Assembly: GCA_049317185.1 (NCBI GenBank)
Contig: JBMOIS010000010.1
Location: 3,220-67,219 of the forward strand
Reading direction: 5' to 3'
Source: Chlorobium sp.
GTDB lineage: Bacteria > Bacteroidota > Chlorobiia > Chlorobiales > Chlorobiaceae
Length of the DNA stretch: 64,000 nucleotides
Shown here: in pieces, positions 17,671 to 60,728 of the stretch
How positions within the stretch are numbered: position 1 is the first letter of the stretch
How the letters are laid out: the number at the start of each line of letters is the position of its first letter
Notes under the pieces: generated by a model
The model's input: only the letters and a program-made list of their open reading frames with translations
Told to the model about the DNA's origin: nothing
Database searches by the model: none
Translations under genes and position numbers: made by a program

Positions 17671-20406
17671 TCAAAAGTTATGACCAATACTGAAATAAAA
17701 GATGGTCTCTGAAAATTTCAGGGAGGTGTATGCTGTATTGTGAGCTTCTGCAAGAAATGGGAACGCTTTTGAAACGGTAAGCCTTGTCGGACCGAGAGGA
17801 GTGTCCCAAATCATGCTTGCTCCGATACCGTGAATAAGGTGCGCAGAAGAGATATCGTCCATATTTTCCCATACATTGCCGACATTGTAATGCAGGAGCA
17901 GCGATGTTGGAAAGAGAATGTCAAATGATGGTTTGTAGCCAAAATGTATTCCGGCCGCCGCCATATTGTCGCATGGAAGATCGTTTTCTTTCAACCCTGT
18001 AAAACGCTGGCTGTAAGTTGTTCCCGGTCCTCCGAGAAAAAATTTCTCTGACAATGGTAAGTTGCTGCTGCTCAGACCAAAAAGTCCCGAAAGTTGCAAG
18101 GTGGTTTTTTTTGTAAGCTGGATATTTTCTTCATGGTTTCCTGATACCAGCCAGAAAATATCATGATTGTTAAAAAATGATGGAGTCAGTGAGTATTTAA
18201 CGTTTGTATAGGTTCCCGAAGTTGGGGTCAATGAGTTGTTTCTCGAATCAAGGGTAAATTGTGTGCCGATGGAGAGTGTCGTGTTATTTGCGGTGTTCAA
18301 TGCTGCACTGTTATGCTCTTCAGCCCAGGATTGTGCGTTTTGCAGGGTAATCTCCGCAATTAACTGACCGTTTTTTCGGATTCTTGCGCCGAAAGCATGG
18401 CTGAAACCGTACTTCTGGATTCCATAATTTTTCAGAGCTTCTGAAACATCGCGATGTTCAAAAACATGCTCGTCATAAAAAAGGCGTGAAGACATCGTCA
18501 AGTGTGACTCACCTATCCTTGGCACATTAAATTCAAGGTTGACAAGATAGTTTTTTCTTCCTGCCTTCAGCCAGCCGCCAATTGAGTTGGTTGTGCCTCC
18601 GAGATTTTCGTTTCTGACATCGACAAGGAACTGGGCATTGTTTGTTTCATCATAGCGCAAACCGAGCCGGAGCACTGAGGGTGGTTTTTCTTCAAGAGAA
18701 AAGTTGATCAGGGGATTGCTGTCGGGCACAGAGCCTTCGGCCGGCTTTGCGAAGATGGAGACTCGATTGAAGCCCCCCGTTTCGTAAAGATTATTGACAG
18801 ACTCTTCGGCCTTCTGGATGCGGAGTGCTTGAGTAGTATCAATTTTTATTTCTCTCATTACAGGAGTGATACCTGTGATATTTTTGTCCCTGCGGATCTC
18901 GATACTCTCCGGCTTTCCAGAAGAAACATTGACGTTCAGGGTGCCATCGTCGAGGGAGCAGCTTTTGATGTTGACAAAGCAGTATCCTTTTCTGCGGTAT
19001 TCTGTTATGAGTGCTTCAAGGGCTTTTGTTCCTGCTGCATTGGTGTAAAGCACTCTTGTTATCGGGCTGAAACACTCTTCAATCTCATCTGGTGAAAGTG
19101 CTGCGGGAGGTCCACCCGTAACGGTAACATTTATAATTTCTGGAAGTGGATCAAGGTGAAAAATTACTTTTTTATGGAGGTGATCAAGTTCGGCCGAGAC
19201 TCTGGTAAAGAGATCTGTTGCCAGCAACTTCTGAAAGGTTTTGTCCAGGTCTGTTGCATTGTGGATAATGGCGGAGGCAACAGGGTTATATTCCGGATTA
19301 TCTTGTGGGAACAGGAATGTTTTGGTATACGTTCCGATAGCAATACTTCGTGAACTCTTGTTTTCTATCCTGAGTTTTATGGTCTCTGCAACAACTTTTC
19401 CTTTGGCATAGCCGGCATCGACAAGAGCTTTAATATTCGAAAAATCGGTGGCTTTATGGTCGCCGAGTTCGGGAGTTATGACAATATCTGCTTTTGCAAG
19501 TTGCGCCGGGTATTGCAATTTTGTGAGGATGGTCATCGCCTGATCGGCAGCTTTCCAGGGGAGATCAAGTTCGCCGCCGGTTGCATACATGCTGCCGTGC
19601 GTATCGACCGCAATTTTATAGTCGGCATTGAACGCATCAAGTTCATCGACCGGAAGATTGGCAACGAGTCCGCCATCAACCAACTGGTAACCGTCACGGA
19701 TGATCGGTTCATAAAGAATTGGAATAGTACTGCTTGCCCGCATTGCTTCTGACAGTGAGCCGCTGGTAAGGGTGATACGCTTTCCTGAAACAAGATCGGT
19801 AGAAACTGCCCTGAAATTGATCGGAAACGTTGAGAAATTGCCTGAAGCATGATAGAGAGCGTTCAATGCCAGGAGGTCGAGAGTGCCTGTCATCTCCTGA
19901 GCTGAGTTAAGCGATTTAGGAATAACAAGTTTTAGCTTCTCAATACGGATGGCCAGAGATGCCCGGTCACGGATTCGCTGCTGTTCAAGAAAAATGTTTG
20001 AACGGGTATAATTATCATGGAAAGAAAGAATTGATTGCCAGGGAAGGGTATGGACGATCCCTTCAAGTTCCTTTGGGCTGTATCCGCAAGAGTAGAGACC
20101 GCCAATAACGGCACCCATGCTTGTGCCGGCAATACCATCGACGGGAATGCCTGCCTCATCAAGAGCCTTGAGGATGCCAATTTGTGACAGACCGTTTGCG
20201 CCGCCTCCTGAAAGTGCAAGAGCTACAGTTTTTCTGGCAGGCCTCATGAAGTTGAACAGGGTATAGCGGTGTTGAGGAAGTTTTAGCGTGTCGGGATAGA
20301 CCAGTGTCGTCGGTGAGGCCACAGCATCAGGTAGCGTCGTCATTTCCGCGAGGGTAGTGGCAATGATAAGTGCGATGATACAGGCAATTGTTCTGACGTT
20401 CAACAA
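17671..20406 (-). CDS. Patatin-like phospholipase fused to POTRA and Omp85-type beta-barrel (PlpD-like)
   Basis: LSGGGANG, GTSMG nucleophile, DGG motif, central POTRA-like region, C-terminal barrel ending FYFSIGHNF. Confidence 0.88.
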   Translation of the reverse strand: MLNVRTIACIIALIIATTLAEMTTLPDAVASPTTLVYPDTLKLPQHRYTLFNFMRPARKTVALALSGGGANGLSQIGILKALDEAGIPVDGIAGTSMGAVIGGLYSCGYSPKELEGIVHTLPWQSILSFHDNYTRSNIFLEQQRIRDRASLAIRIEKLKLVIPKSLNSAQEMTGTLDLLALNALYHASGNFSTFPINFRAVSTDLVSGKRITLTSGSLSEAMRASSTIPILYEPIIRDGYQLVDGGLVANLPVDELDAFNADYKIAVDTHGSMYATGGELDLPWKAADQAMTILTKLQYPAQLAKADIVITPELGDHKATDFSNIKALVDAGYAKGKVVAETIKLRIENKSSRSIAIGTYTKTFLFPQDNPEYNPVASAIIHNATDLDKTFQKLLATDLFTRVSAELDHLHKKVIFHLDPLPEIINVTVTGGPPAALSPDEIEECFSPITRVLYTNAAGTKALEALITEYRRKGYCFVNIKSCSLDDGTLNVNVSSGKPESIEIRRDKNITGITPVMREIKIDTTQALRIQKAEESVNNLYETGGFNRVSIFAKPAEGSVPDSNPLINFSLEEKPPSVLRLGLRYDETNNAQFLVDVRNENLGGTTNSIGGWLKAGRKNYLVNLEFNVPRIGESHLTMSSRLFYDEHVFEHRDVSEALKNYGIQKYGFSHAFGARIRKNGQLIAEITLQNAQSWAEEHNSAALNTANNTTLSIGTQFTLDSRNNSLTPTSGTYTNVKYSLTPSFFNNHDIFWLVSGNHEENIQLTKKTTLQLSGLFGLSSSNLPLSEKFFLGGPGTTYSQRFTGLKENDLPCDNMAAAGIHFGYKPSFDILFPTSLLLHYNVGNVWENMDDISSAHLIHGIGASMIWDTPLGPTRLTVSKAFPFLAEAHNTAYTSLKFSETIFYFSIGHNF

Positions 20407-20525
20407 AGGTAATGCTCCTCGTTTATCAAATCGTTATAGAAGGGTTTATTCTGACCGTTTTTGAGATCTCCTGTGAACTTCATATCTTGAGGTTTAATGT
20501 ATAACCTTTACTCTTCATTGTAAAC

Positions 20526-21365
20526 ATGGCATGGTTTAATCGGGTAAAACCCTCAATACTTCCAACCGACAAGCGAGATATGCCGGAAGGGTTGTGGTGG
20601 AAATGTGAAGAGTGCGGAGCGATGCTTCACAAAAAACAGCTTGAAGATTATTTTTACACCTGTTCGGAATGCAGCCACCATTTCAGGATATCTCCTTATA
20701 AGTATTTCTCGATTCTTTTTGATGGCGACAAGTACATTGAGTTTGATGATAACCTCCGTTCTGCCGATCCTCTCAGTTTTACCGATACAAAAAAATATCC
20801 TGACAGGGTTCATGATACTATTGAAAAGAAGGGAAAAACTGAGGCCTGCCGGAATGCTCATGGAGAGTGCGGAAGTAGCCCCCTTGTCGTTTCAGCCATG
20901 GATTTTGGTTTTATCGGTGGTTCAATGGGTTCGGTTGTTGGTGAAAAAATAGCTCGTGCTGTGGACAAGTCGCTTGAACTCAATGCTCCTCTCCTTGTTA
21001 TTTCCCAGTCAGGCGGAGCCCGGATGATGGAAGGTGCATTCAGCTTGATGCAGATGGCTAAAACTGCCGCCCGGCTTACCAGGCTCAGTGAGAGGAAATT
21101 GCCCTATATCTCTCTTCTTTCCGATCCGACAATGGGAGGTATAACCGCCTCTTTTGCCATGCTTGGCGATATCAATATCAGCGAGCCGAAAGCTCTCATA
21201 GGGTTTGCTGGTCCCAGGGTGATCAGGGATACCATCAAAAGAGATCTGCCCGAAGGGTTTCAGCGAGCTGAGTTTCTGCTTGAACATGGCTTTCTTGATC
21301 GCATTATCTCCCGGAGGGATCTGAAAAGCGAGCTGGTTACTCTGCTCGGTATGCTCAAAGTTTAG
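20526..21365 (+). CDS. accD: Acetyl-CoA carboxylase carboxyltransferase beta subunit
   Basis: WWKCEEC...CSEC Zn finger, [29 protein letters not shown]. Confidence 0.98.
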
Positions 21366-48990: not shown

Positions 48991-49464
48991 ATGCCGCGTT
49001 ATACCCCAGAACAGCTTGCCAAACGAAACGCATCAGTCTGGACCGATATTCAGATTATACTTGCGCCGATACAGTTTCTCTTTTTTATTGCAGGGTTGAC
49101 CATTACGGTGCTCTACGCCAATGATCTTTTTGTCACCAGTTTTTACTGGGTCAGTCTGGCCATTCTGTTCAAGACACTGTTTTTTGCTCTTCTTTTCATT
49201 ACAGGGATGTTTTTTGAAAAAGAGGTTTTTGATCAATGGGTTTATTCTAAAGAGTTTTTCTGGGAAGATGTTGGAAGCACTGTCGCGGCTTCATTTCATC
49301 TGCTTTACTTTTTTTTGGCCTTGTTCAAAGCTCCACAGGAGGTGTTGATTTGGGATGCTTATCTGGCTTATTTTACTTATGTGATTAATGCGCTGCAGTA
49401 TCTGGTCAGAATTATTCTTGAAAAACTCAATGAACGCAACCTCAGGATTGAGGGTCAGTTATGA
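48991..49464 (+). CDS. bchF: 3-vinyl (bacterio)chlorophyllide hydratase, BchF/BchV family (position suggests the BchV paralogue)
   Basis: [18 protein letters not shown]...[21 protein letters not shown], multi-TM. Confidence 0.88.
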
Positions 49465-49679
49465 AATACAGTTTTAAAAGACTTTGGAATACAGCGTTTC
49501 TGTTTGTTGGGCCAGCGTGGTATCTGCTTGTCTGGATGATTTGGTCGTCCGGCCAGTTGCTGACTATCGGTGACAAGGTTACGTTTCTTGGTATAGTGAT
49601 TCCTGGTTTTCTCATTATCTACAGCGCCGGATTTCTTATTGAAGGTTGGCATGAAAAGAAGAAAAAAGCGAACGCCTGA
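49461..49679 (+). CDS. Small two-TM membrane protein of unknown function
   Basis: ATGA overlap with the bchF-family stop, two hydrophobic helices and a basic C-terminus (HEKKKK). Confidence 0.75.
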
Positions 49680-49752: not shown

Positions 49753-51870
49753 ATGCAGAACCTTTGGAACGATGCTGAGCATCAATGCTTCGTCAAAGAG
49801 CAGTGCAGCTTACCCGAGATGCAGTCTGAACTGGCTGAATTGGTCTATGCATCCCGCCTTCTTGGCCGTGAAAGTTCACTGGTGATGCATGGCGGGGGTA
49901 ATACCTCCGTCAAGTGTGAATTGGTTGATATGGTTGGCAATCGAGCTGAAGTGCTCCTGATAAAGGCGAGTGGTGTTGATTTGAGCAGGGTCACCGGTCT
50001 CGACTATACACCGCTCAGATTGGGCCCGCTGCGTAAACTTGTTGAGTTATTCAGCCATAACGACAGTATCAGCGAAGAGGCACTTCGGCGTTTTTCAACC
50101 AAAGAGTTTAAATATCTGTTGTTGTTGAACATGTTTACCCTGAATGATCACCTGACAGAGAAGAGGCTGACACCTTCGATTGAAACACTCCTTCACGCTT
50201 TTCTTCCGCACCGGTTTATTCTTCATACTCATTCATTCGCCCTGCTGACGCTAAGCAATCAGCCCGACGGAGTCAGGCTCTGCAGCGAAACTCTTGGTGA
50301 AAGCTTTGGCTCAGTTCCCTATATCAAGCCAGGACTTGGACTTGCCCGGTCGGCAGCCAGTGTTTATGAGGCAAACCCGGAGATAAAAGGGCTGGTGCTT
50401 CAGAAGCACGGTCTGGTTACTTTCGGTTCAACTGCCCGTGAAGCCTATAGTCGAATGATTGAAGCTGTCAGTATGCTTGAAGAGCGGATTGCTGTGTCGG
50501 GCAGAAAAAACTTCCCATCGGCATCGTTGCCAGCGACTATTGCTTCTGTCGACGTGACGGCCCCCGTCATCAGGGGCGCTTGTGTTGAGGAGATGGCACC
50601 GGGGACTCGTGAGTATCATCAGTTCATTCTCGATTTCCGTACTTCCGCTGATATTCTTGAATATGTTAATAGTGCTGATCTGGTGCGCATGAGTCAAAAG
50701 GGTGCCATGACACCGGACTTTATTATCCGTACGAAAAACAAGCCGCTGGTTGTCTCTGCCCCTGATGCAAGTGACATTCCTGGATTCAAGGCAGCAGTAC
50801 ATGAGGCTGTCCAACAATACTGTCAAGAATATACCGAGTACTTTACCATTCAGCAGCAGGTTTCCGACATGAAGGTAACGATGCTCGACCCCCTGCCAAG
50901 AGTAGTACTGGTGCCAGGTCTTGGTCTTTTTGGACTTGGAAAAACCGCAGCATCTGCCGCCGTCAATGCAGACATAGCGACGTGCACTGCGTCCGCCATT
51001 CTTGATGCCGAATCACTCGGTACTTTTGAAACCATCAGTGACCGTGAAGCTTTTGAGATAGAGTACTGGGACATGGAACAGGCCAAAATGAACAAGGTTC
51101 ATCACGATGTTTTTGCTGGCAAGGTTGTTTTGGTTACCGGGGCCGCAAGTGGCATAGGACTTGCGACAGCCAAAGCCTTCCGCCAGAAAGGGGCCGAACT
51201 GGTTCTTCTTGACCTGACCAGTGAATCACTCGACAGGGCGGCACAAGAGCTTGGAGGCAACGTCCTTACTCTCACCTGTGATGTTACCTCCAGGGCAGAG
51301 GTTCACGCAGCATTCGATGCAGCCTGCCGCCGTTTTGGTGGAGTGGACATTATTGTGTCCAATGTTGGTGCCGCCATTCAGGGACGCATTGGCGAAGTCG
51401 CAGACGATCTGCTCCGTAAAAGTTTTGAACTTAACTTTTTTCAACACCACTCCATTGCCCAGGAGGCCGTCAGGGTGATGAAACTGCAGGGCACGGGTGG
51501 AGTACTGTTGTTCAACGTTTCAAAACAGGCGGTCAATCCAGGCCCGGATTTTGGACCTTATGGTTTGCCAAAAGCGGCGACCATGTTTCTTGTGCGTCAG
51601 TATGCGCTGGATCATGGCCGTGACGGTATTCGTGCAAACGGGATCAATGCGGATCGTATTCGCAGCGGTCTGCTTACTGAAGAGATGATCAAGGCCCGCT
51701 CAACCGCCCGGGGTCTGAGTGAGCGGGAGTATATGGCCGGCAATCTGCTGCAGCTTGAAGTGACCGCAGAAGATGTCGCAGAAGCTTTTGTGCACCTTGC
51801 GCTTGAAACCAGGACGACCGGATCAATTACCACAGTGGATGGCGGCAACATTGCTGCTGCGCTCCGCTGA
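49753..51870 (+). CDS. Bifunctional class II aldolase / short-chain dehydrogenase (RhaD-SDR fusion type)
   Basis: HGGGNTSVK, PSIETLLHA...HTHS metal motif, KHGL, then SDR VTGAASGIG and YGLPK. Confidence 0.9.
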   Translation: MQNLWNDAEHQCFVKEQCSLPEMQSELAELVYASRLLGRESSLVMHGGGNTSVKCELVDMVGNRAEVLLIKASGVDLSRVTGLDYTPLRLGPLRKLVELFSHNDSISEEALRRFSTKEFKYLLLLNMFTLNDHLTEKRLTPSIETLLHAFLPHRFILHTHSFALLTLSNQPDGVRLCSETLGESFGSVPYIKPGLGLARSAASVYEANPEIKGLVLQKHGLVTFGSTAREAYSRMIEAVSMLEERIAVSGRKNFPSASLPATIASVDVTAPVIRGACVEEMAPGTREYHQFILDFRTSADILEYVNSADLVRMSQKGAMTPDFIIRTKNKPLVVSAPDASDIPGFKAAVHEAVQQYCQEYTEYFTIQQQVSDMKVTMLDPLPRVVLVPGLGLFGLGKTAASAAVNADIATCTASAILDAESLGTFETISDREAFEIEYWDMEQAKMNKVHHDVFAGKVVLVTGAASGIGLATAKAFRQKGAELVLLDLTSESLDRAAQELGGNVLTLTCDVTSRAEVHAAFDAACRRFGGVDIIVSNVGAAIQGRIGEVADDLLRKSFELNFFQHHSIAQEAVRVMKLQGTGGVLLFNVSKQAVNPGPDFGPYGLPKAATMFLVRQYALDHGRDGIRANGINADRIRSGLLTEEMIKARSTARGLSEREYMAGNLLQLEVTAEDVAEAFVHLALETRTTGSITTVDGGNIAAALR

Positions 51871-51925
51871 ACGACAGAGAGAGTAGAGAGTAACCATCAT
51901 AACCGAAAAGAGGAGATCGACCATC

Positions 51926-52807
51926 ATGGCAGAATACGATAAAGACAAACAGGCCAAAGAGTATTATCTTGACACCCCTGTCAACAACTACGGATTCTTT
52001 CTCAAGGGAGCACACTCTCTTGACTGGGGAATGAAGAATCGCCTCTCAAGAATATTTCGACCCGATACAGGCAAGACCGTGATGCTTGCTATTGATCATG
52101 GTTACTTTCAGGGACCTACCACCGGTCTTGAGCGTCCTGATGTCAATATTGTGCCGCTGATGCCCTATGCTGATGCGATCATGTTGACACGTGGTATTTT
52201 GCGCACCACTGTTCCACCAAGCCTTACCAGAGCGGTCGTCATGCGTTGCAGCGGAGGCCCGAGCATTCTCAAGGAGCTTTCTGATGAAGAGCTTGCCGTC
52301 GATATTGAAGATGCCATTCGTATGAATGTTGCGGCAATCACCCTGCAGATATTCATTGGTGGTGAATACGAGACCCGCTCAATACATAATATGACACGTC
52401 TGGTCGATATGGGCCTGCGTTATGGAATTCCAACCATGGCAGTGACTGCCGTTGGCAAGGATATGGTGCGCGATGCCAAGTATTTCCGGCTTGCCTGCCG
52501 TATGGCTGCCGAACTCGGTGCGCAGATTGTCAAGACCTATTATGTGCCGGAAGAGTTTGATACGATTACAGCTTCATGCCCTGTACCGATTGTTATGGCT
52601 GGCGGCAAGAAACTTCCTGAGCTTGAAGCACTCACGATGTCACGCAACGCTATTGATGAAGGCGCATCAGGTGTTGATATGGGCCGTAATATTTTTCAGA
52701 GTGATTCCCCGCTTGCCATGATGAAAGCGGTTAACAAGGTGGTGCATGAGCAGATGAGTCCAAAGGATGCCTACGACTATTTCAATACCATAAAGGCTGA
52801 AGGATAA
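51926..52807 (+). CDS. lsrF: LsrF-like 3-hydroxy-5-phosphonooxypentane-2,4-dione thiolase (class I aldolase fold)
   Basis: [27 protein letters not shown], catalytic [20 protein letters not shown]. Closely matches my recollection of E. coli LsrF. Confidence 0.88.
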
Positions 52808-52893
52808 CGTACTTCTGTCAAAGTTCGATTTTTTTAATGGATACCCTTGAGCAACTTGCTGCATGCCGGGACAGGGGCGTATGATGTTTTTCT

Positions 52894-54192
52894 ATGAACA
52901 GAGAGGATATTAAAGGTTTTTTTGCTTCAAGAGAGCAGCTTCCTATGGCTGACTACCTGACGCTCGACTACTACCTGGAATGCGTGGGGGATATAGAGAT
53001 AGCCCTTGCTCATTTCTGCAGCGAACAATCTACGGCACAGTGGAAACGTGTTGGCCATGACGAAGACTTCCGTCCCAAATATGGGGCGAAGGTTATCAGC
53101 CTGACGGTTGAGGGGGAGCTTCCCGCGCTCAGCTATCCTGTCACTCATGCCGCAGCCGGTACTGTCCACGCATGCCGTGTCACTATTGCACATCCTCATC
53201 GGAATTTCGGGACAAAAATCCCGAATCTGCTCTCCGCAGTCTGTGGAGAAGGAGTCTTTTTTACTCCAGGAGTACCAGTGGTCAAGTTGCTTGATATCGG
53301 TTTTCCGGAGTCTTACCTTCTTGCTTTTGATGGGCCAAAATTTGGTATTGATGGCATACGCGATATTCTTCAAGCCTATAACAGGCCAATCTTTTTTGGA
53401 GTGGTTAAACCCAATATAGGGCTCAGTCCTGTTGACTTCGCTGAAATTGCCCGTCAGAGCTGGCTCGGTGGACTGGATATCGCCAAAGATGACGAAATGC
53501 TGGCCGATGTGGACTGGTCAACTCTTATTGAGCGATCTCATGCACTGGGAGAGGCAAGACGGAGCGCGGAACAGGAGACCGGTGAGCCGAAGATTTACCT
53601 TGCCAATGTGACCGATGAGGTTGACCGGCTGATTGAGCTGCATGATATTGCTGTCCGCAACGGAGCCAATGCCCTGCTGATCAATGCCCTCCCGGTGGGA
53701 CTCAGCGCTGTCAGAATGCTGGCAAAGCATACGAAAGTCCCTCTTATCGGTCATTTTCCTTTTATTGCAGCGTTCAGCCGGATGGAAAAATATGGTGTTC
53801 ACTCAAGGGTCATGACCAAACTGCAACGCCTTGCCGGTCTTGATTCAATTATCATGCCTGGATTTGGCAACAGGATGATGACACCGGAAGAGGAGGTCAA
53901 AGAGAATATCAAAGAGTGTCTGCAAGAGTTCGGTCATCTCCGCCGTTCACTTCCTGTTCCGGGTGGCAGCGATTCTGCCTTGACACTCGAAGGGGTGTAC
54001 CGTAAAGTCGGCAGTGTTGATTTTGGCTTTGTGCCTGGTCGTGGTATTTTTGGTCATCCCATGGGTCCAAAAGCTGGTGCGACGAGCATCCGTCAGGCAT
54101 GGGAGGCGATAGAGCAGGGTATTGAGCTTGAAACGTATGCAGTCGGTCGGCCGGAACTTCAGGTGATGGTTGACGGGGCCAACGGAAAATAG
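52894..54192 (+). CDS. RuBisCO-like protein, form IV (IV-Photo type)
   Basis: [24 protein letters not shown] (carbamylated-Lys motif), [20 protein letters not shown]. No small subunit gene. Confidence 0.93.
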
Positions 54193-54201
54193 CAGGTTCT
54201 C

Positions 54202-55026
54202 ATGGGGAAGCTCGACCACAAGGTTGCCGTTATTACCGGCTCTACCAGAGGGATAGGTAAAGCTATAGCCCGTGAATTTGTACGTGAAGGCGCAAAGGTG
54301 GTCATTACCTCCTCCTCTCATGCCAATGTTCAGTCGGTTGTATCGGAATTTCCTTTGGGTACAGCACATGGCTGTGTCTGCAATGTAGTCTCAATGGCTG
54401 ATATGGAACAACTTATCCTGGAGGCAACAGGCAGATTCGGCAAGGTTGACTGTTTTATTAACAATGCAGGGATTTCCGATTCCTTCGGGAGCATTACCGA
54501 GAGCGATCCAGATGAATGGGGAAAGGTCATTGACACCAATCTCAAAGGAACCTATAACGGGTGCCGTGCTGCAATCAGCTATTTTCTCAGAGAAAGCAGA
54601 AAAGGAAAGGTTATCAACATGGCAGGATCCGGGAGTGACAGAGGCTCAAATACTCCATGGATCAGTGCCTACGGTTCCACCAAGGCAGCCATAGCGCGTT
54701 TTACCTACGCCGTTGCCGAAGAGTATCGACAGACAGGAATCTCTGTCATGCTGCTGCATCCAGGGCTGGTTCGTACCGGCATGGTCAGCACCGGGAACCC
54801 TACGGTCGAACTGTCACGGCAGTTAGCCACGTTCAACACGATTCTTGATATTTTTGCCCAGCCTCCGTCCGTTGCAGCAAAGCTCGCCGTGAAACTTGCA
54901 TCAAGCTGGAGTGATTCCAAAACAGGCGTTTATCTTTCAGCCTTGAGTGGAAGAAGAAAAAAGGGGTTGCTTCTGACCTATCCCTTCCGTAAAATAACGA
55001 ACAGGATTGACCGTCGAACCTATTAA
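54202..55026 (+). CDS. Short-chain dehydrogenase/reductase
   Basis: ITGSTRGIG, NNAG, YGSTK catalytic motif. Confidence 0.9.
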   Translation: MGKLDHKVAVITGSTRGIGKAIAREFVREGAKVVITSSSHANVQSVVSEFPLGTAHGCVCNVVSMADMEQLILEATGRFGKVDCFINNAGISDSFGSITESDPDEWGKVIDTNLKGTYNGCRAAISYFLRESRKGKVINMAGSGSDRGSNTPWISAYGSTKAAIARFTYAVAEEYRQTGISVMLLHPGLVRTGMVSTGNPTVELSRQLATFNTILDIFAQPPSVAAKLAVKLASSWSDSKTGVYLSALSGRRKKGLLLTYPFRKITNRIDRRTY

Positions 55027-55039
55027 TTCGGGTATCGTC

Positions 55040-55549
55040 ATGAGAAAAGCGGGTGCAACGACAGCCATACTTTTTTTCTTTTTTTTTGCCATTCTTCAGG
55101 GCTGTTACAGCTTTACAGGAGGATCATTGCCAGCGCACCTGAAAACTATTGCAATTCCGGTGTTTGACGACCGTTCAGGGGCCGGGATTGCTCAATTCCG
55201 GATGGAACTTGCCAGAGGTCTTTGTGATAGAATAGAATCGCAAAGCCCGCTTCGCTTGACGCCATCCATTGCTCGTGCTGATGCCCTGCTTGAAGGATCG
55301 ATCATCTCCTTTTCTGATGTGCCAGGCCAGCTTTCCAGTACAACCGAGCGGGCTATGACAAACAGGATTACCATGGTTGTTCAGGTTACGATGGAAGATC
55401 GTGTCAAAAAAAAGGCGCTGTTTACACAATCGTTTGTCGGATTTGCCGACTATCCTGCGGGGAACTCTGTTTCGCAGCAGGAGGCAATTCGATTTGCCAT
55501 TGGCCAAATTGTTGAAGGGATTTTTGACCGGGTTGTCTCTGGATGGTAA
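55040..55549 (+). CDS. lptE: LptE family lipoprotein
   Basis: Lipobox LQGC followed by YSFTGGSLPAHLKTIAIPVF, typical of Bacteroidota/Chlorobiota LptE. Confidence 0.78.
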   Translation: MRKAGATTAILFFFFFAILQGCYSFTGGSLPAHLKTIAIPVFDDRSGAGIAQFRMELARGLCDRIESQSPLRLTPSIARADALLEGSIISFSDVPGQLSSTTERAMTNRITMVVQVTMEDRVKKKALFTQSFVGFADYPAGNSVSQQEAIRFAIGQIVEGIFDRVVSGW

Positions 55550-55651
55550 AATTGGCGCATTGCAAGAGGAACGGAAGGTGATTCAGATTTTTTTTATTAC
55601 AATGACGATGTAAAGCCTGTGGTATGCAGGTATCCACTAAAGGAGGTTGTT

Positions 55652-56077
55652 ATGGGAACAGACAAGAATGTTGAGTACCGTCTTGAACTTGCTCGAGGGT
55701 TTCTGAATGAGGCGGAGCAGGATTATTCTCTCAGGCGCTGGCGAGCGTGTGTTTCAGATTCTATTCTCGTGATAGAACATACAGGCCTTGCCGTGCTGAT
55801 GCTCTTTGGTGTCTCTCCCTTGACCCATAAGCCGGGCAAGCATTTGTCACAACTGATTTCAGAGGGAACCGTAGCATACGATGTTGCGGCGCTCATTGAA
55901 CAGATTCTTCCGGAGCTTGAAACGTTTGATTCGCACGAAAAAATGCTTGCAAAATACGGAGACGAGTTATCTTACAGGCTTCCCTGGGAGCTTTTTGGCG
56001 AAGAGCAGGGTGGATTGGCTATTGAGGCTGCCCGCAAGTGTATGCGCTTGAGTCAGGATATGGCCGGGCTGCTGTAG
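55652..56077 (+). CDS. Stand-alone HEPN domain protein
   Basis: All-helical ~140 aa. RLELARGFLNEAE...VIEH..LAVL..FG..P.TH pattern, KYG, E..G.AIEAA. Strong AAGGAGGT ribosome-binding site at 55640-55647. Confidence 0.7.
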   Translation: MGTDKNVEYRLELARGFLNEAEQDYSLRRWRACVSDSILVIEHTGLAVLMLFGVSPLTHKPGKHLSQLISEGTVAYDVAALIEQILPELETFDSHEKMLAKYGDELSYRLPWELFGEEQGGLAIEAARKCMRLSQDMAGLL

Positions 56078-56131: not shown

Positions 56132-57010
56132 ATGAAAGGAATTATTCTGGCAGGAGGCTCTGGTACCAGACTCTATCCGGTCACAAGGGGAATATCGAAA
56201 CAGCTCCTTCCGGTTTATGACAAGCCCATGATCTACTATCCCCTGACGACGCTGATGCTTTCGGGGATACGGGATATTCTTGTTATCACCACATCTGAGG
56301 ATCAGCCGATGTTTATGAAACTGCTTGGGGATGGCCGTGACTGGGGTATTTCCCTCTCTTATATAGTGCAGCCCTCTCCCGACGGGCTTGCCCAGGCGTT
56401 CATCCTTGGTGAGGCATTTATTGGCAGTGATGACGTTGCTCTTATTCTTGGCGATAATATCTTTTTTGGTTACGCATTCAGTGCAATGCTTGAGGCGGCT
56501 GCAGGGTTGGTAGAAAAAGAGCGTAAGGCAACGATATTTGGCTATTATGTCAGTGATCCGGGGCGTTATGGTGTTGCAGAACTTGATGCTGAGGGAAATG
56601 TGCTCTCTCTTGAAGAGAAGCCTCAGAATCCGAAATCAAATTATGCTGTGGTCGGGCTCTATTTTTATCCCAACAGTGTGGTAGAGATCGCAAAACAGGT
56701 GCGTCCATCCTCACGGGGAGAGCTTGAAATCACGGCGGTTAATGAGGCCTATCTGATAAAGGGTCAGCTCAAGTGTTCCATGCTGGGGCGCGGATTTGCC
56801 TGGCTTGATACCGGAACGCATGAGTCATTTCAGGAGGCAGGGAGTTTTATTCAGACTGTGGAAAAAAGGCAGGGATTGAAAATTGCCTGCCCTGAAGAGA
56901 TCGCTTGGCGAAATGGCTGGATTACAGACGAAAAGCTGTTGCAGTTGTCTGAACCATTGATGAAAAGTAACTACGGACAGTATCTGAAGCAGTTGTTGGT
57001 TCAACGGTAA
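56132..57010 (+). CDS. rfbA: Glucose-1-phosphate thymidylyltransferase
   Basis: [42 protein letters not shown]. Confidence 0.98.
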
Positions 57011-57097
57011 CGTGCAGTTATGTTAAAAAAACAGGCAGTTTTTCTTGGCAGAGGCTCTTGTTGTGATTGGTGATTTCAATATATTTTCCCGGTATTT

Positions 57098-57688
57098 ATG
57101 CGTGTAATTGTTTCAACCATACCTGATGTCCTGATTTTTGAGCCGCAAGTGTTCGGTGACGATCGCGGCTATTTTTTTGAATCATTTCGCCAGGATCTTT
57201 TTGACCAGCACATCGGGAAGGTTGCGTTTGTACAGGATAATGAGTCGAAGTCAGGCTACGGGGTGCTTCGTGGCCTTCATTTTCAAAAACCCCCGTTTAC
57301 CCAGTCCAAGCTTGTTCGGGTGGTTTATGGGTCTGTGCTTGATGTTGCTGTTGATCTGCGTCTTGGTTCGCCGTGGTATGGCCATCATGTAGCCTGTGTG
57401 CTTGATGCCGAACGGAAAAATATGCTGTGGGTGCCGAAAGGGTTTGCGCACGGCTTTCTTGTGCTCTCTCCTGAAGCCGTTTTTGCCTACAAGTGCGACA
57501 GCTATTACGCTCCATCTCACGATGCCGGTATTCTTTGGAATGATCCAGCCCTTTGTATCGACTGGCGGCTTCCGGAAGTGGCGATCCGTGTTTCAGGCAA
57601 AGATGCCATACAACCGCAGTTTGGTTCGGTTGATCTGTTTCAGTACGACGATTTCAGACAGGAAAAACTTTATCCGGGGGCTTCATAA
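57098..57688 (+). CDS. rfbC: dTDP-4-dehydrorhamnose 3,5-epimerase
   Basis: FGDDRGYFFE, VLRGLHFQ, GFAHGF. Confidence 0.97.
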   Translation: MRVIVSTIPDVLIFEPQVFGDDRGYFFESFRQDLFDQHIGKVAFVQDNESKSGYGVLRGLHFQKPPFTQSKLVRVVYGSVLDVAVDLRLGSPWYGHHVACVLDAERKNMLWVPKGFAHGFLVLSPEAVFAYKCDSYYAPSHDAGILWNDPALCIDWRLPEVAIRVSGKDAIQPQFGSVDLFQYDDFRQEKLYPGAS

Positions 57689-58576
57689 TTGAATATTCTT
57701 GTTACAGGCAGCCGGGGTCAGCTTGGTTCTGAATTGCAGGAGCTGTCGGCTCTCTGTGACAACCATCGGTTTTTTTTCTATGATCTTCCTGAGCTTGATA
57801 TTACACGTCCCGACCAGGTTGTGTCACTTTGTCGTGACCATGACATAGAGGTGATTGTCAATTGCGCGGCATATACGGCTGTGGACAAGGCTGAAACAGA
57901 TGCTGGGATGGCATTCAGGGTGAACCGGGATGGATCGGAAGTCCTTGCTGTGTGCGCCAAAGAACGCAATGCCCTGCTGCTGCATCTTTCTACTGACTAT
58001 GTTTTTGATGGTTCCTCCAGTACCCCTTACCGGGAGAGTGATCCGGTTGCGCCACTTGGAGTGTACGGTCACTCAAAGTGGGAGGGTGAAGAGTGTATCC
58101 GTCAGATTGCACCGTCGCACATTATTATCAGGACATCCTGGCTTTACTCGATTTACGGTGTTAATTTTGTCAAAACCATGTTGCGCCTCGGTGCAGAACG
58201 GCCCGAGCTGAATGTTGTGGTTGACCAGATTGGAACGCCTACCTGGGGGGCAGATCTGGCAGCAACGATTATGTCGATTATTGAGCGGCATGACAGGGAT
58301 TTCCATTATGGAGTTACCTTCCATTACTCAAACGAAGGGGTTGCTTCCTGGTACGATTTTGCAAAAGCGGTTATGGATTTGGCAGGAGTTCCCTGCAAGG
58401 TTCTGCCGATAGAAAGCGCCCGGTATCCCCAGATTGCACCACGGCCACAGTACAGCGTTTTGAACAAGTCGGCAATTAAAAAGGAGTGGGCGATTGAAAT
58501 CCCCTACTGGCGCGATTCACTGGCAGCCATGATTCAGCGTTTGGCTGATGGAGGGGGCGTGAGCCATAACACGTAA
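57689..58576 (+). CDS. rfbD: dTDP-4-dehydrorhamnose reductase
   Basis: VTGSRGQLG, AAYTAVDKAE, STDYVFDG, YGHSK, PRPQYS. TTG start. Confidence 0.96.
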   Translation: MNILVTGSRGQLGSELQELSALCDNHRFFFYDLPELDITRPDQVVSLCRDHDIEVIVNCAAYTAVDKAETDAGMAFRVNRDGSEVLAVCAKERNALLLHLSTDYVFDGSSSTPYRESDPVAPLGVYGHSKWEGEECIRQIAPSHIIIRTSWLYSIYGVNFVKTMLRLGAERPELNVVVDQIGTPTWGADLAATIMSIIERHDRDFHYGVTFHYSNEGVASWYDFAKAVMDLAGVPCKVLPIESARYPQIAPRPQYSVLNKSAIKKEWAIEIPYWRDSLAAMIQRLADGGGVSHNT

Positions 58577-58670
58577 ATGTTTTTTTATCGGGAATGGTGT
58601 GGAGTACAGACCCCGTAGAGGCGACGACTTGGCTGCACGGGGAAGTTTTCAACAAATCATTAGCTCATCA

Positions 58671-59720
58671 ATGCATATTCTGATTACAGGGGGAGCGGGC
58701 TTTATCGGGTCGCATGTTGTCCGTCATTTTTTGACGAGATATCCCTCGTATACAATTACCAACCTCGACTGTTTGACGTATGCCGGAAACCTGGCCAATC
58801 TGAAAGATATTGAGCATCTGCCGAACTACAGGTTTGTCAAGGGGGATATCACCGACGGCGATTTTCTGATGCGCCTTTTTGAAGAGCACCAGTTTGACGG
58901 AGTGATTCATCTGGCAGCAGAGTCGCACGTTGATCGCTCAATTGCCAATCCGACGGAATTTGTGGTGACCAATGTGCTTGGCACGGTCAATCTGCTCAAT
59001 GCAGCCAAGGCCTCCTGGCAGGGAGATTATGAGAGCAAGAGGTTCTACCATATCTCAACCGATGAGGTTTACGGTTCACTCGGCAAGGAGGGGATGTTTA
59101 CCGAAGAGACACCTTACGATCCCCATAGCCCCTACTCAGCCTCAAAAGCCTCCTCCGACCATTTTGTCAGGGCCTGGCACGACACCTTCGGCTTCCCCGT
59201 GGTGATCAGCAACTGTTCAAACAACTACGGTTCATTCCAGTTTCCCGAAAAGCTCATCCCTCTATTTATCAACAATATCCTCCACCAAAAACCGCTTCCG
59301 GTCTACGGCAAAGGAGAAAATATCCGCGACTGGCTCTGGGTTGTTGACCATGCCCAGGCTATTGATGTGATCTATCACCAGGGCAAAACAGGTGAGACCT
59401 ACAATATTGGTGGCCATAATGAATGGAGTAATATCGATCTTGTCAGACTGCTTTGCCGTATCATGGACACAAAGCTCAGACGGGATGCCGGAGAATCTGA
59501 AAAATTGATTACTTATGTGACTGACAGGGCCGGTCACGACCTTCGTTATGCTATCGATTCGTCAAAATTACAACGCGAACTTGGCTGGGTTCCTTCTATA
59601 ACATTTGAAAAAGGGCTTGAGCTGACGGTGGAGTGGTATCTCTCAAATGGTGAGTGGCTCAACAATGTCACCTCGGGCAGCTACCAGCATTATTACGAAA
59701 AAATGTATGGTGGCCGGTGA
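58671..59720 (+). CDS. rfbB: dTDP-glucose 4,6-dehydratase
   Basis: ITGGAGFIG, AAESHVDRS, STDEVYG, YSASK, RDWLWV. The start is the ATG at 58671. Confidence 0.97.
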   Translation: MHILITGGAGFIGSHVVRHFLTRYPSYTITNLDCLTYAGNLANLKDIEHLPNYRFVKGDITDGDFLMRLFEEHQFDGVIHLAAESHVDRSIANPTEFVVTNVLGTVNLLNAAKASWQGDYESKRFYHISTDEVYGSLGKEGMFTEETPYDPHSPYSASKASSDHFVRAWHDTFGFPVVISNCSNNYGSFQFPEKLIPLFINNILHQKPLPVYGKGENIRDWLWVVDHAQAIDVIYHQGKTGETYNIGGHNEWSNIDLVRLLCRIMDTKLRRDAGESEKLITYVTDRAGHDLRYAIDSSKLQRELGWVPSITFEKGLELTVEWYLSNGEWLNNVTSGSYQHYYEKMYGGR

Positions 59721-59750
59721 CAATAATTATTTAAAGAGAGGATCGTTTTT

Positions 59751-60728
59751 ATGAGAATTCTGGTTATCGGGGGTGCAGGCTATATTGGCAGCCATGTTAC
59801 AAGAGCTTTTCTTGATAAAGGATACGAGGTGACGGTGTTCGACAATTTGCAGACTGGCTTCAGGGAAAATCTTTTTGAAGAGGCTCACTTTGTCCATGGC
59901 GATATCATGCGTCCTGAGCAATTGCGTGCTGTTATGGCTGGAGGCTATGATGGGTGCGTTCACCTTGCCGGATTAAAGGCGGCCGGGCAGTCGATGTTGC
60001 ATCCTGCGGTATACGCTCATGCCAATATTTCTGGTACGATTAATGTTCTTGATCACGCTGCTGCTGCGGCGATATCCCCGATTATTTTTTCATCATCCGC
60101 CGCTGTTTACGGAAGTCCCCACTATCAGCCCATTGACGAACATCATCCTCTCAACCCTGAAAATTTTTACGGTTTTACCAAGCTTGAAATCGAGTGTCTT
60201 TTGGAGTGGTATGACCGGCTGAAAGGGATGCGTTATGCGGCAATCCGATATTTCAATGCTGCCGGGTATGATGTGCAGGGGCGGGTAAAGGGGCTGGAGT
60301 TGAACCCTGAAAATCTGCTGCCTCTTGTGATGGAGGCTGCTGTGGGTATTCGATCGAAAATTTCTATTTTTGGAGATGATTACCCGACACGGGATGGAAG
60401 CGGCATTCGCGACTATGTTCATGTAAGCGATCTTGCTGAAGCACATGTCACCGTTTTTGAATACATTCTGAAGCATGACAAGAGTTTGACGGTGAATCTC
60501 GGTAGCGAGAAAGGGGTGAGTGTGTTTGAAATGGTTGAAAGGGCACGGGCAATTACCGGTCGGGAAATTTCTGCTGAAGTTGTTGGCAGAAGGGCAGGCG
60601 ATCCGGCGGAACTTGTGGCATCTTCCGGCAAGGCGAAGGAGTTGCTTGGGTGGGTGCCGAAATACAGTGATGTCGATACCCTTGTTTCTTCAACATGGAA
60701 GATGTACGAAAAGTATATTACCCGTTAA
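59751..60728 (+). CDS. galE: UDP-glucose 4-epimerase
   Basis: GGAGYIGSH, FSSSAAVYG, YGFTK, RYFNAAG, RDYVHV. Confidence 0.93.
   Translation: MRILVIGGAGYIGSHVTRAFLDKGYEVTVFDNLQTGFRENLFEEAHFVHGDIMRPEQLRAVMAGGYDGCVHLAGLKAAGQSMLHPAVYAHANISGTINVLDHAAAAAISPIIFSSSAAVYGSPHYQPIDEHHPLNPENFYGFTKLEIECLLEWYDRLKGMRYAAIRYFNAAGYDVQGRVKGLELNPENLLPLVMEAAVGIRSKISIFGDDYPTRDGSGIRDYVHVSDLAEAHVTVFEYILKHDKSLTVNLGSEKGVSVFEMVERARAITGREISAEVVGRRAGDPAELVASSGKAKELLGWVPKYSDVDTLVSSTWKMYEKYITR

Follow-up and report, generated by a model that had tools for sequence, protein, structure and literature searches.

LsrF is the thiolase of the autoinducer-2 (AI-2) processing system of Escherichia coli and Salmonella, and its catalytic residues (the Schiff-base Lys-203, Asp-57, and Asp-251) and phosphate-site residues (His-58, Gly-226, Gly-227, Gly-253, and Arg-254) have been defined (PMC2728841). 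The dihydroxyacetone phosphate (DHAP) shunt, comprising MtnP, MtnA, the aldolase Ald2, and an alcohol dehydrogenase (ADH), is also established (PMC5893883, PMC8102628). The function of the form IV-Photo RuBisCO-like proteins (RLPs) was stated to be unknown as of 2018 (PMC5893883). The DeepYkr RLPs of Rhodospirillum rubrum and Rhodopseudomonas palustris, from another clade of the superfamily, are methylthioribulose-1-P 1,3-isomerases of the 5'-methylthioadenosine (MTA)-isoprenoid shunt. Here we analyze a stretch of 64,000 nucleotides from Chlorobium sp. (GenBank assembly GCA_049317185.1, contig JBMOIS010000010.1, positions 3,220 to 67,219 of the forward strand), called the window below, in which an LsrF homologue, a class II aldolase domain, and a Photo RLP are encoded in one four-gene cluster. 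The window belongs to contig C10 (contigs, loci, and genomes carry our own labels) of a 3.1-Mb assembly of 204 contigs that is 92.7% complete.

The cluster consists of a fusion of a class II aldolase and a short-chain dehydrogenase/reductase (SDR), aldSDR, at 49753-51870 (PF00596 and PF00106 in the open reading frame (ORF) read), an LsrF-type 3-hydroxy-5-phosphonooxypentane-2,4-dione (P-HPD) thiolase homologue at 51926-52807 (NF006081), a form IV-Photo RLP at 52894-54192 (RuBisCO_large), and a second, stand-alone classical SDR at 54202-55026 (PF00106, 160 bits), all on the + strand. The intergenic gaps are 55, 86, and 9 nt, and a terminator scan inside the cluster gave nothing convincing. The first-pass annotation had described four co-oriented genes and a cluster already known in Chlorobi; the former is confirmed by the ORF positions and domain searches, and the latter is correct, as this is the long-known Chlorobiaceae RLP locus. 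It is orthologous to the RLP locus of Chlorobaculum tepidum, where the four-gene order is the same, the RLP is about 80% identical, and nothing essential differs; the C. tepidum RLP is reportedly that of Hanson and Tabita in 2001. The function that we propose modifies two schemes already known, namely the DHAP shunt and thiolysis of the Lsr type. We suggest, as a tentative reading that we hold with less than even confidence, that the SDR domain of the fusion and LsrF together would carry out an oxidative, CoA-dependent cleavage of 5-deoxyribulose-1-P.

The LsrF of the window scores 512 bits against the LsrF equivalog NF006081 (cut-off 297), in a match spanning residues 1-290 of 291, and it aligns without gaps to E. 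coli LsrF (PDB 3GKF, 3GLC, and 4P2V) at 61% identity. Asp-57, His-58, Lys-203, Gly-226, Gly-227, Asp-251, Gly-253, and Arg-254 are all conserved, and the same residues are identical in three planctomycete-type homologues and a Chloroherpeton-like homologue. The lysine of the 'VKTYY' motif, to which the first-pass annotation had drawn attention, corresponds to Lys-203 of the E. coli enzyme. Judged by its sequence, the window protein is a true LsrF with intact catalytic residues and no Lsr partners. With E. coli queries, tblastn of the whole assembly gave no match at E<=1e-3 for lsrK, lsrR, lsrB, lsrC, lsrD, or lsrG, and the LsrA query matched only a generic ABC ATPase. The earlier observation that lsrK, lsrG, and an AI-2 transporter are absent from the window thus holds and extends to the whole assembly, and a complete lsr locus elsewhere in this 92.7%-complete assembly is rejected. 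The Chlorobium system therefore has LsrF in common with AI-2 processing in E. coli and Salmonella, whereas LsrK, LsrG, LsrR, and LsrACDB are missing from its genome. The window enzyme probably shares the thiolytic chemistry of the Lsr enzyme on a 2,4-diketone phosphate. Without the Lsr partners, this diketone must come by another way, most plausibly from a dehydrogenase. In the literature, we found no paper tying LsrF to RLPs, Chlorobi, 5-deoxyribose, or rhamnose.

Loci from other lineages (3 genome and about 63 metagenome loci sampled outside Chlorobi) show that LsrF usually has a dehydrogenase as its neighbor. It is followed by an SDR, or in a few cases by a Zn-dependent ADH (Zn-ADH), in almost all loci that extend far enough for the neighbor to be seen, and LsrFs 79-82% identical to the window protein were found in anaerobic Planctomycetota. 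Often these loci also carry a class II aldolase of 380-445 aa, an Rpe-like gene, or both, in every possible arrangement, aldolase-SDR fusions among them. The SDRs of these loci match the SDR domain of the fusion with 33-36% identity, versus 25% for the fourth gene of the Chlorobium cluster. Among the roughly 63 metagenome loci, lsrK occurs in one and lsrG in none. Because LsrF-dehydrogenase adjacency recurs without LsrK and LsrG, the arrangement fits a reaction sequence in which the dehydrogenase makes a β-diketone and LsrF thiolyses it. In the LsrF tree, made by neighbor joining in Biopython and carrying no support values, all Chlorobia LsrFs form one clade, sister to the SDR- and rhamnose-linked group, and the Zn-ADH-linked forms and E. 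coli LsrF lie further out. The unfused SDR and aldolase of these relatives appear to be RhaEW-like parts of rhamnose-type operons. A number of planctomycete-type operons (L103, L105, L110, L114, L116, L118, L121, L122, L132, L137, and L178) contain rhamnulokinase, L-rhamnose isomerase, and LsrF, and the same operons also hold an Rpe/LsrE-like epimerase, an SDR, a class II aldolase, and three unannotated proteins of about 445-570 aa. Gene content of this kind suggests that rhamnulose-1-P is converted to DHAP and lactoyl-CoA by an oxidative-thiolytic pathway not yet described.

The fusion protein has its class II aldolase domain in residues ~1-445 and its SDR domain in residues ~446-705. It matches NF006193, 'bifunctional aldolase/short-chain dehydrogenase', with 1356 bits against a cut-off of 1213, and belongs to NF006192 as well, but it stays under the cut-off of the rhamnulose-1-P aldolase/ADH family TIGR02632 (443.8 vs 567.75 bits). 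When aligned to 3M4R, the fusion is seen to keep the Glu and the three His residues of class II aldolases (PSIET...LHTHS...KHG), with roles that we assume to be those in FucA and RhaD. The N-terminus of the fusion is the sole class II aldolase-family sequence in the genome, in which there is no stand-alone class II aldolase. A possibility overlooked in the first-pass annotation is that the fusion, which resembles RhaEW-type enzymes, could alone run the conventional aldol cleavage of the DHAP shunt. It shares the two-domain architecture of RhaEW (TIGR02632), and its unfused planctomycete homologues lie in operons with RhaA and RhaB. Unlike RhaEW, however, it falls below the family cut-off, it stands in a genome without rhamnose isomerase or kinase (no tblastn match to planctomycete RhaA and RhaB queries), and its LsrF partner is obligatory.

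The order aldSDR-lsrF-RLP-SDR-lptE is found in all 80 Chlorobiaceae RLP loci fetched, so the arrangement is not due to chance. The cluster is part of a longer region of conserved synteny that includes tsf and pyrH on its upstream side and, in many loci, rmlA downstream. The loci closest to the window cluster come from metagenome-assembled genomes of freshwater Chlorobiaceae. Within the family, LsrF is the most conserved protein (80-100% identity), compared with 64-95% for the fusion and 62-92% for the SDR. When 132 genomes of the class were surveyed, 111 of the 115 from Chlorobiaceae proved to have LsrF, as did 2 of 3 from a second family and none of 13 from two further families. A Chloroherpeton-like genome (G119) has the fusion (56% identity) and LsrF (82%) adjacent to each other and far from its YjbQ-RLP pair. 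Class II aldolases show a complementary pattern. A single stand-alone FucA-like class II aldolase (ORFs of 234-285 aa) is present in each of the 14 genomes without LsrF that we examined in the other Chlorobia families, and only the ~705-aa fusion in each of the three examined with LsrF. Two separable modules are combined in the cluster, aldSDR-LsrF and Photo RLP, since aldSDR-LsrF occurs without RLP and RLP occurs without LsrF.

Where would the substrate of the first module come from? On contig C34, an mtnA gene (19752-20756; TIGR00512, 380 bits vs cut-off 279) begins 15 nt after a gene for an inosine/guanosine-type purine nucleoside phosphorylase (PNP; NF006054, 388 bits), and this PNP is the sole PNP/MTA phosphorylase (MTAP)-family gene in four Chlorobiaceae genomes checked. 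Five genomes were examined for lineages with aldSDR-LsrF, the present genome, G118, G119, and G059 among them, and in all five PNP adjoins MtnA or lies close to it, at distances of 15-36 nt up to ~0.9 kb. In six genomes compared from lineages without LsrF, PNP is not near MtnA. The other Chlorobia families (within G117-G132) have, with the exception of G125, a second PNP/MTAP paralogue that is 36-42% identical, and their PNP is not linked to mtnA except in genus g5. The PNP-MtnA operon would supply a ketose-1-P, for which the cluster offers the only apparent downstream enzyme in the genome. This resembles the disposal of 5-deoxyribose by the DHAP shunt (MtnP or MtnN plus MtnK, MtnA, and Ald2/DrdA) in that MtnA stands beside a phosphorylase, a class II aldolase domain is present, and DHAP is the expected product. 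The differences are that canonical MtnP, MtnN, and MtnK are lacking, that the Chlorobium aldolase forms one protein with an SDR, always has LsrF as its companion, and lies apart from mtnA, and that the proposed cleavage would be oxidative and thiolytic, giving acetyl-CoA, rather than aldolytic, giving acetaldehyde.

The RLP of the window reaches no family cut-off for RuBisCO, MtnW, or OiaX. It scores 757 bits with the C. tepidum RLP (1TEL/1YKW; ~80% identity) and 670 bits with R. palustris RLP2 (2QYG), and it is assigned to form IV-Photo because of these scores. The motifs GVVKPN, AKDDE, GHFPF, and IMPGFGNR can be read in it; the KDDE motif reported in the first-pass annotation is thus present, and both KDDE and VVKPN are identical across the Photo clade. 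In RuBisCO numbering, the carbamyl-lysine/metal motif and Lys-175 are presumably retained and other substrate residues replaced, for example Lys-177 by Asn. C. tepidum RLP mutants show a pigment phenotype. A C. tepidum RLP mutant has sulfur and stress phenotypes as well (PMC5893883). R. palustris RLP2 slowly isomerises methylthioribulose-1-P in vitro (PMC5893883), showing that Photo RLPs do bind this class of substrate. The likeness of the Chlorobium protein to the DeepYkr RLPs thus extends from the superfamily to the likely substrate class, a keto-pentose-1-P made by MtnA; on the other hand, it is of a different clade, it has no cupin partner, and the R. palustris Photo RLP is outside the DeepYkr pathway.

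Outside Chlorobiaceae, the partner of the RLP is a different one. Eight Photo RLPs (66-70% identity) were traced to nine loci with flanks (among L085-L091 and L196-L198), from Chloroherpeton thalassium, a purple sulfur bacterium with the pair within its puf/light-harvesting complex (LHC) region, and several Pseudomonadota, among others. A YjbQ/UPF0047 gene lies directly upstream of the RLP gene in all nine, with a gap of 3-10 nt in eight and ~330 nt in L087, and LsrF, the fusion, or an SDR stands beside the RLP in none. Between LsrF-linked and YjbQ-linked RLPs, the motifs lining the active site hardly differ, so both should catalyze the same reaction. There is no YjbQ in the window cluster, while two copies are present elsewhere in the genome. 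One of these, at C9:46573-47013 (L191:4573-5013), is 62% identical to Chloroherpeton YjbQ and follows an alpha-amylase-family gene, and such a gene likewise flanks the Chloroherpeton YjbQ-RLP pair. It thus seems that the RLP moved out of this YjbQ locus. Our literature search on YjbQ/UPF0047 and RLPs found no link between them. The first-pass annotation had proposed to examine the neighborhoods of IV-Photo RLPs for lsrF; the association stands within the Chlorobiaceae loci and fails outside them, where YjbQ is the partner. The second SDR follows the RLP in every Chlorobiaceae locus and in no RLP locus outside the family. Its best NCBIfam and PDB matches are generic (glucose-1-dehydrogenase, FabG) and all below cut-offs, and a specific identity for either SDR was not obtained, as PDB searches gave generic matches only. 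The RLP and second SDR form a recruited module with a plausible, though unproven, link to LsrF.

A diverged second aldSDR-LsrF pair without RLP, 66-88% identical to that of the window, occurs in five brown Chlorobium genomes of the bacteriochlorophyll (BChl) e type, among them C. phaeobacteroides DSM 266 (L199:8929-14200) and Pelodictyon phaeoclathratiforme BU-1. In the three loci fetched (L199, L200, and L201), the pair lies between the radical S-adenosylmethionine (SAM) gene bciD and cruB, beside a bchF paralogue, and in DSM 266 a B12-type radical-SAM gene is also near. The published account of this BChl e/isorenieratene island mentions bciD, cruB, and bchF2, and the words 'aldolase' and 'dehydrogenase' do not appear in its main text (PMC3613366). 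Genome G094 retains a remnant of LsrF next to bciD.

From gene content, catalytic residues, distributions, and genomic contexts, we infer the following scheme of substrates and reactions. In this cluster, two older modules would have been united, specifically in Chlorobiaceae. The PNP-MtnA operon would make 5-deoxyribulose-1-P from 5'-deoxyadenosine, the by-product of radical-SAM enzymes such as BchE, BchQ, BchR, and BciD, and the first module, the fusion and LsrF, would split a deoxy-ketose-1-phosphate in an oxidative, CoA-dependent reaction. To our knowledge, green sulfur bacteria do not catabolise sugars, and for this reason 5-deoxyribulose-1-P seems the most likely substrate, possibly along with 5-methylthioribulose-1-P. 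The SDR would oxidise the C-4 hydroxyl to give a 2,4-diketone, which in the case of 5-deoxyribulose-1-P is P-HPD, the proven substrate of LsrF; the earlier proposal that the LsrF substrate is 5-deoxyribulose-1-P oxidised at C-4 is thus chemically right, and the same diketone would also arise from 1-deoxy-pentulose-5-P oxidised at C-4. LsrF, through its Schiff base at Lys-203, would then move the acyl group to CoA to give DHAP and acetyl-CoA. The class II aldolase domain may run a conventional DHAP-shunt aldol cleavage in parallel, or it may serve in substrate binding or epimerisation. The second module, the Photo RLP and the second SDR, would have moved here from its ancestral partner YjbQ, and the RLP would probably enolise or tautomerise a related keto-pentose phosphate, for example from the 2,3-diketo to the 2,4-diketo form as LsrG does, which is the weakest step of the scheme. 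Alternatively, it could act as a 1,3-isomerase like the DeepYkr RLPs. The complete sequence that would result, an energy-conserving, O2-independent salvage of 5'-deoxyadenosine by PNP, MtnA, SDR oxidation with RLP tautomerisation, and LsrF to DHAP and acetyl-CoA, is in our judgment doubtful.

Several observations weigh against the oxidative cleavage of 5-deoxyribulose-1-P and its place in 5'-deoxyadenosine salvage. In family searches of the genome, MtnP, MtnN/Pfs, and MtnK are absent or below cut-off, and no amidohydrolase-type MTA/5'-deoxyadenosine deaminase (MtaD) was found, the only Amidohydro_1 protein being dihydroorotase. As the PNP is moreover of the inosine/guanosine type, the first step of the salvage is unproven. 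The search for mtnP, mtnK, and mtnA elsewhere in the genome, proposed in the first-pass annotation, thus gave the PNP-MtnA operon but neither canonical MtnP nor MtnK. All 20 Chlorobia genomes tested encode MtnA, whether they carry the cluster or not, and for this reason its presence does not discriminate between them; a phylogenetic profile of MtnA against the cluster is uninformative. An MtnA-like neighbor occurs in only 1 of the ~63 metagenome loci (L106), and the nearest LsrF relatives, at ~80% identity, sit in rhamnose-type operons, with L-rhamnose isomerase (PF06134, 712 bits) ~1.7 kb upstream in 11 loci. G059, a 99%-complete Chlorobium genome, appears to be without LsrF, RLP, and any class II aldolase and has kept the PNP-MtnA operon; the 18 kb downstream of its pyrH (L195) contain none of the cluster genes. 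This genome may be a natural knock-out of the cluster. The SDR domain of RhaEW is said, by Rodionova et al. in 2013, to oxidise free lactaldehyde, and with such a reaction LsrF would be unnecessary. The distribution patterns rest on perhaps two to four evolutionary events.

The links to pigment synthesis and to the RLP are subject to similar doubts. The second aldSDR-LsrF copy is intact in only 5 of 16 bciD-positive genomes and lost or decayed in the other 11, and second copies nest among the primary copies of Chlorobiaceae in the neighbor-joining tree, so that this extra pair may simply have been carried along when a whole block was duplicated. The position directly behind a bch gene, which had been taken as support for a role in BChl synthesis, does not serve as such, because 10 of the 71 Chlorobiaceae loci that include the fusion gene, and so extend beyond it on the upstream side, have no bchF there, and the whole tsf-pyrH-...-lptE block is syntenic. 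The adjacency reflects syntenic history and not a requirement, and a functional one is largely rejected. For the LsrF and SDR part of the scheme, the support from comparative genomics is circumstantial. The RLP part is weak, and the role of LsrG that had been assigned to the RLP is not borne out: C. thalassium has the RLP without LsrF, purple bacteria have it without LsrF nearby, and the pairing outside Chlorobiaceae is with YjbQ. As a general statement, a dedicated replacement of LsrG by the RLP is ruled out by this pairing and by C. thalassium. Deletion of RLP2 in R. palustris has no effect on MTA metabolism (PMC5893883). The earlier idea of 5'-deoxyadenosine salvage stands, then, as far as the PNP-MtnA operon, the LsrF-dehydrogenase adjacency, and the second copy at bciD carry it, and it is set back by the universal presence of MtnA, the role of the RLP, and the rhamnose-linked relatives.

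Among the other explanations, it is possible, though we doubt it, that the cluster contains a conventional DHAP shunt in fused form, with the aldolase domain cutting 5-deoxy- or 5-methylthio-ribulose-1-P to DHAP and acetaldehyde or methylthioacetaldehyde, the SDR domain oxidising or reducing the aldehyde as RhaEW does with lactaldehyde, and LsrF, the RLP, and the second SDR acting elsewhere. The RhaEW-like fusion with its intact metal and catalytic residues would suit this, as would its position as the sole class II aldolase, mutually exclusive with the stand-alone FucA-like enzyme of related genomes, and the DHAP shunt is itself established (PMC5893883, PMC8102628). However, the constant company that LsrF keeps with the fusion or an unfused SDR across phyla, even in loci that have no class II aldolase, is left unexplained, and the fusion is below the cut-off of the rhamnulose-1-P aldolase/ADH family. 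A somewhat improbable case is co-location without coupling, in which the RLP and second SDR take part in a separate, YjbQ-linked reaction and merely landed beside aldSDR-LsrF in the ancestor of Chlorobiaceae. The tight YjbQ-RLP pair in 9 of 9 loci, the unchanged active-site motifs of the RLP, and the YjbQ copy that is still found beside the alpha-amylase-family gene of the Chloroherpeton type all speak for it. What speaks against it is that the arrangement with its short gaps is kept in every Chlorobiaceae locus examined and that RLPs and LsrF have come together independently in two other lineages: MtnW/YkrW-like RLPs lie within the LsrF clusters of two unrelated metagenome loci, L161:8001-13040 and L157:3168-9972. 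The former cluster also includes an RpiR regulator, a major facilitator superfamily (MFS) transporter, and acetoin/pyruvate-dehydrogenase-type E1/E2 genes, and the latter includes two isopropylmalate-synthase-like genes and a GlcD-like oxidase.

The company of L-rhamnose isomerase raises the question of a different substrate. A 6-deoxyhexulose-1-phosphate of the rhamnulose type, from turnover of the cell's own rhamnose glycolipids or lipopolysaccharide (LPS), could be split to DHAP and lactoyl-CoA with no relation to SAM by-products. The nearest relatives of LsrF, the SDR, and the aldolase do share operons with RhaA (712 bits) and rhamnulokinase (a one-family FGGY kinase is found in seven loci, and the member tested scores best as rhamnulokinase), and rmlACDB lies 1.1 kb downstream in the window. 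We nonetheless consider this route unlikely, in view of the absence of RhaA and RhaB from the genome, the differing distance to rml among Chlorobiaceae loci, and the lack, as far as we know, of sugar catabolism in green sulfur bacteria. Sulfur salvage, from MTA through 5-methylthioribulose-1-P to DHAP and (methylthio)acetyl-CoA or to an RLP-isomerised methylthio-pentulose phosphate, seems to us just as improbable. It would account for the sulfur phenotypes that mutation of the RLP causes in C. tepidum, MtnA is a genuine methylthioribose-1-phosphate (MTR-1-P) isomerase equivalog, and the characterised RLPs act on methylthio-pentulose phosphates (PMC5893883); on the other side, the Photo RLP of R. 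palustris has no part in MTA metabolism (PMC5893883), the window LsrF is 61% identical to an acetyl-specific enzyme, and no MTA phosphorylase or nucleosidase was found in the genome. Finally, the cluster may detoxify phospho-diketones formed spontaneously, such as products like phospho-4,5-dihydroxy-2,3-pentanedione (P-DPD) from β-elimination of ribulose phosphates, with the RLP in the role of LsrG, LsrF as the terminal enzyme, and the SDRs as accessories. P-DPD is known to form from the RuBisCO enediol by β-elimination, RLPs are met repeatedly in LsrF clusters, and the LsrF residues are intact, all of which would agree with such a role, but the obligatory dehydrogenase partner of LsrF, the C. 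thalassium RLP without LsrF, and the complementary distribution of aldolases would have no explanation, and we regard this as very unlikely.

The surroundings of the cluster consist largely of genes of other functions. Upstream on the + strand is a bchF/bchV-family gene for 3-vinyl bacteriochlorophyllide hydratase at 48991-49464 (TIGR02020 BchF, 201 bits), a context gene outside the proposed pathway, and its end is 288 nt from the start of aldSDR. Most of this gap is occupied by an unannotated hydrophobic 72-codon ORF at 49461-49679 (+), whose ATG overlaps the bchF stop codon (ATGA), and a promoter scan found a sigma-70-like site inside this ORF, at 49570-49597. An LptE-like lipoprotein gene at 55007-55549 (+; PF04390, 47 bits) shares its first 20 nt with the SDR gene. 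The overlap suggests that the two genes, although unrelated in function, are coupled in translation, and they are probably co-transcribed. The LptE-like gene is followed by a small, weakly HEPN-like ORF at 55619-56077 and by a complete dTDP-L-rhamnose operon (rmlA, rmlC, rmlD, and rmlB) with galE at 56132-60728. The presence of an rml operon near a cluster whose closest relatives are rhamnose-catabolic may be a coincidence, as the two are not equally far apart in all Chlorobiaceae loci.

LsrF, annotated in databases as a protein of AI-2 quorum sensing, appears to be half of a widespread dehydrogenase-thiolase cassette that turns deoxy-ketose phosphates into DHAP and acyl-CoA, and the question of Photo-RLP function is reduced to a few concrete and cheap assays. 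If the oxidative cleavage and the salvage built on it are correct, the 'quorum-sensing' LsrF would be ancestrally a deoxy-sugar-phosphate thiolase that always worked with a dehydrogenase, and the IV-Photo RLP would gain a substrate after about 25 years, the question dating from 2001. The salvage of SAM by-products would gain a new branch well suited to anaerobes, one that gives acetyl-CoA in place of toxic acetaldehyde. This salvage would be tied to the heavy use of radical-SAM enzymes in the synthesis of chlorosome pigments, and it would keep the many radical-SAM steps of bacteriochlorophyll c, d, and e synthesis free of product inhibition.

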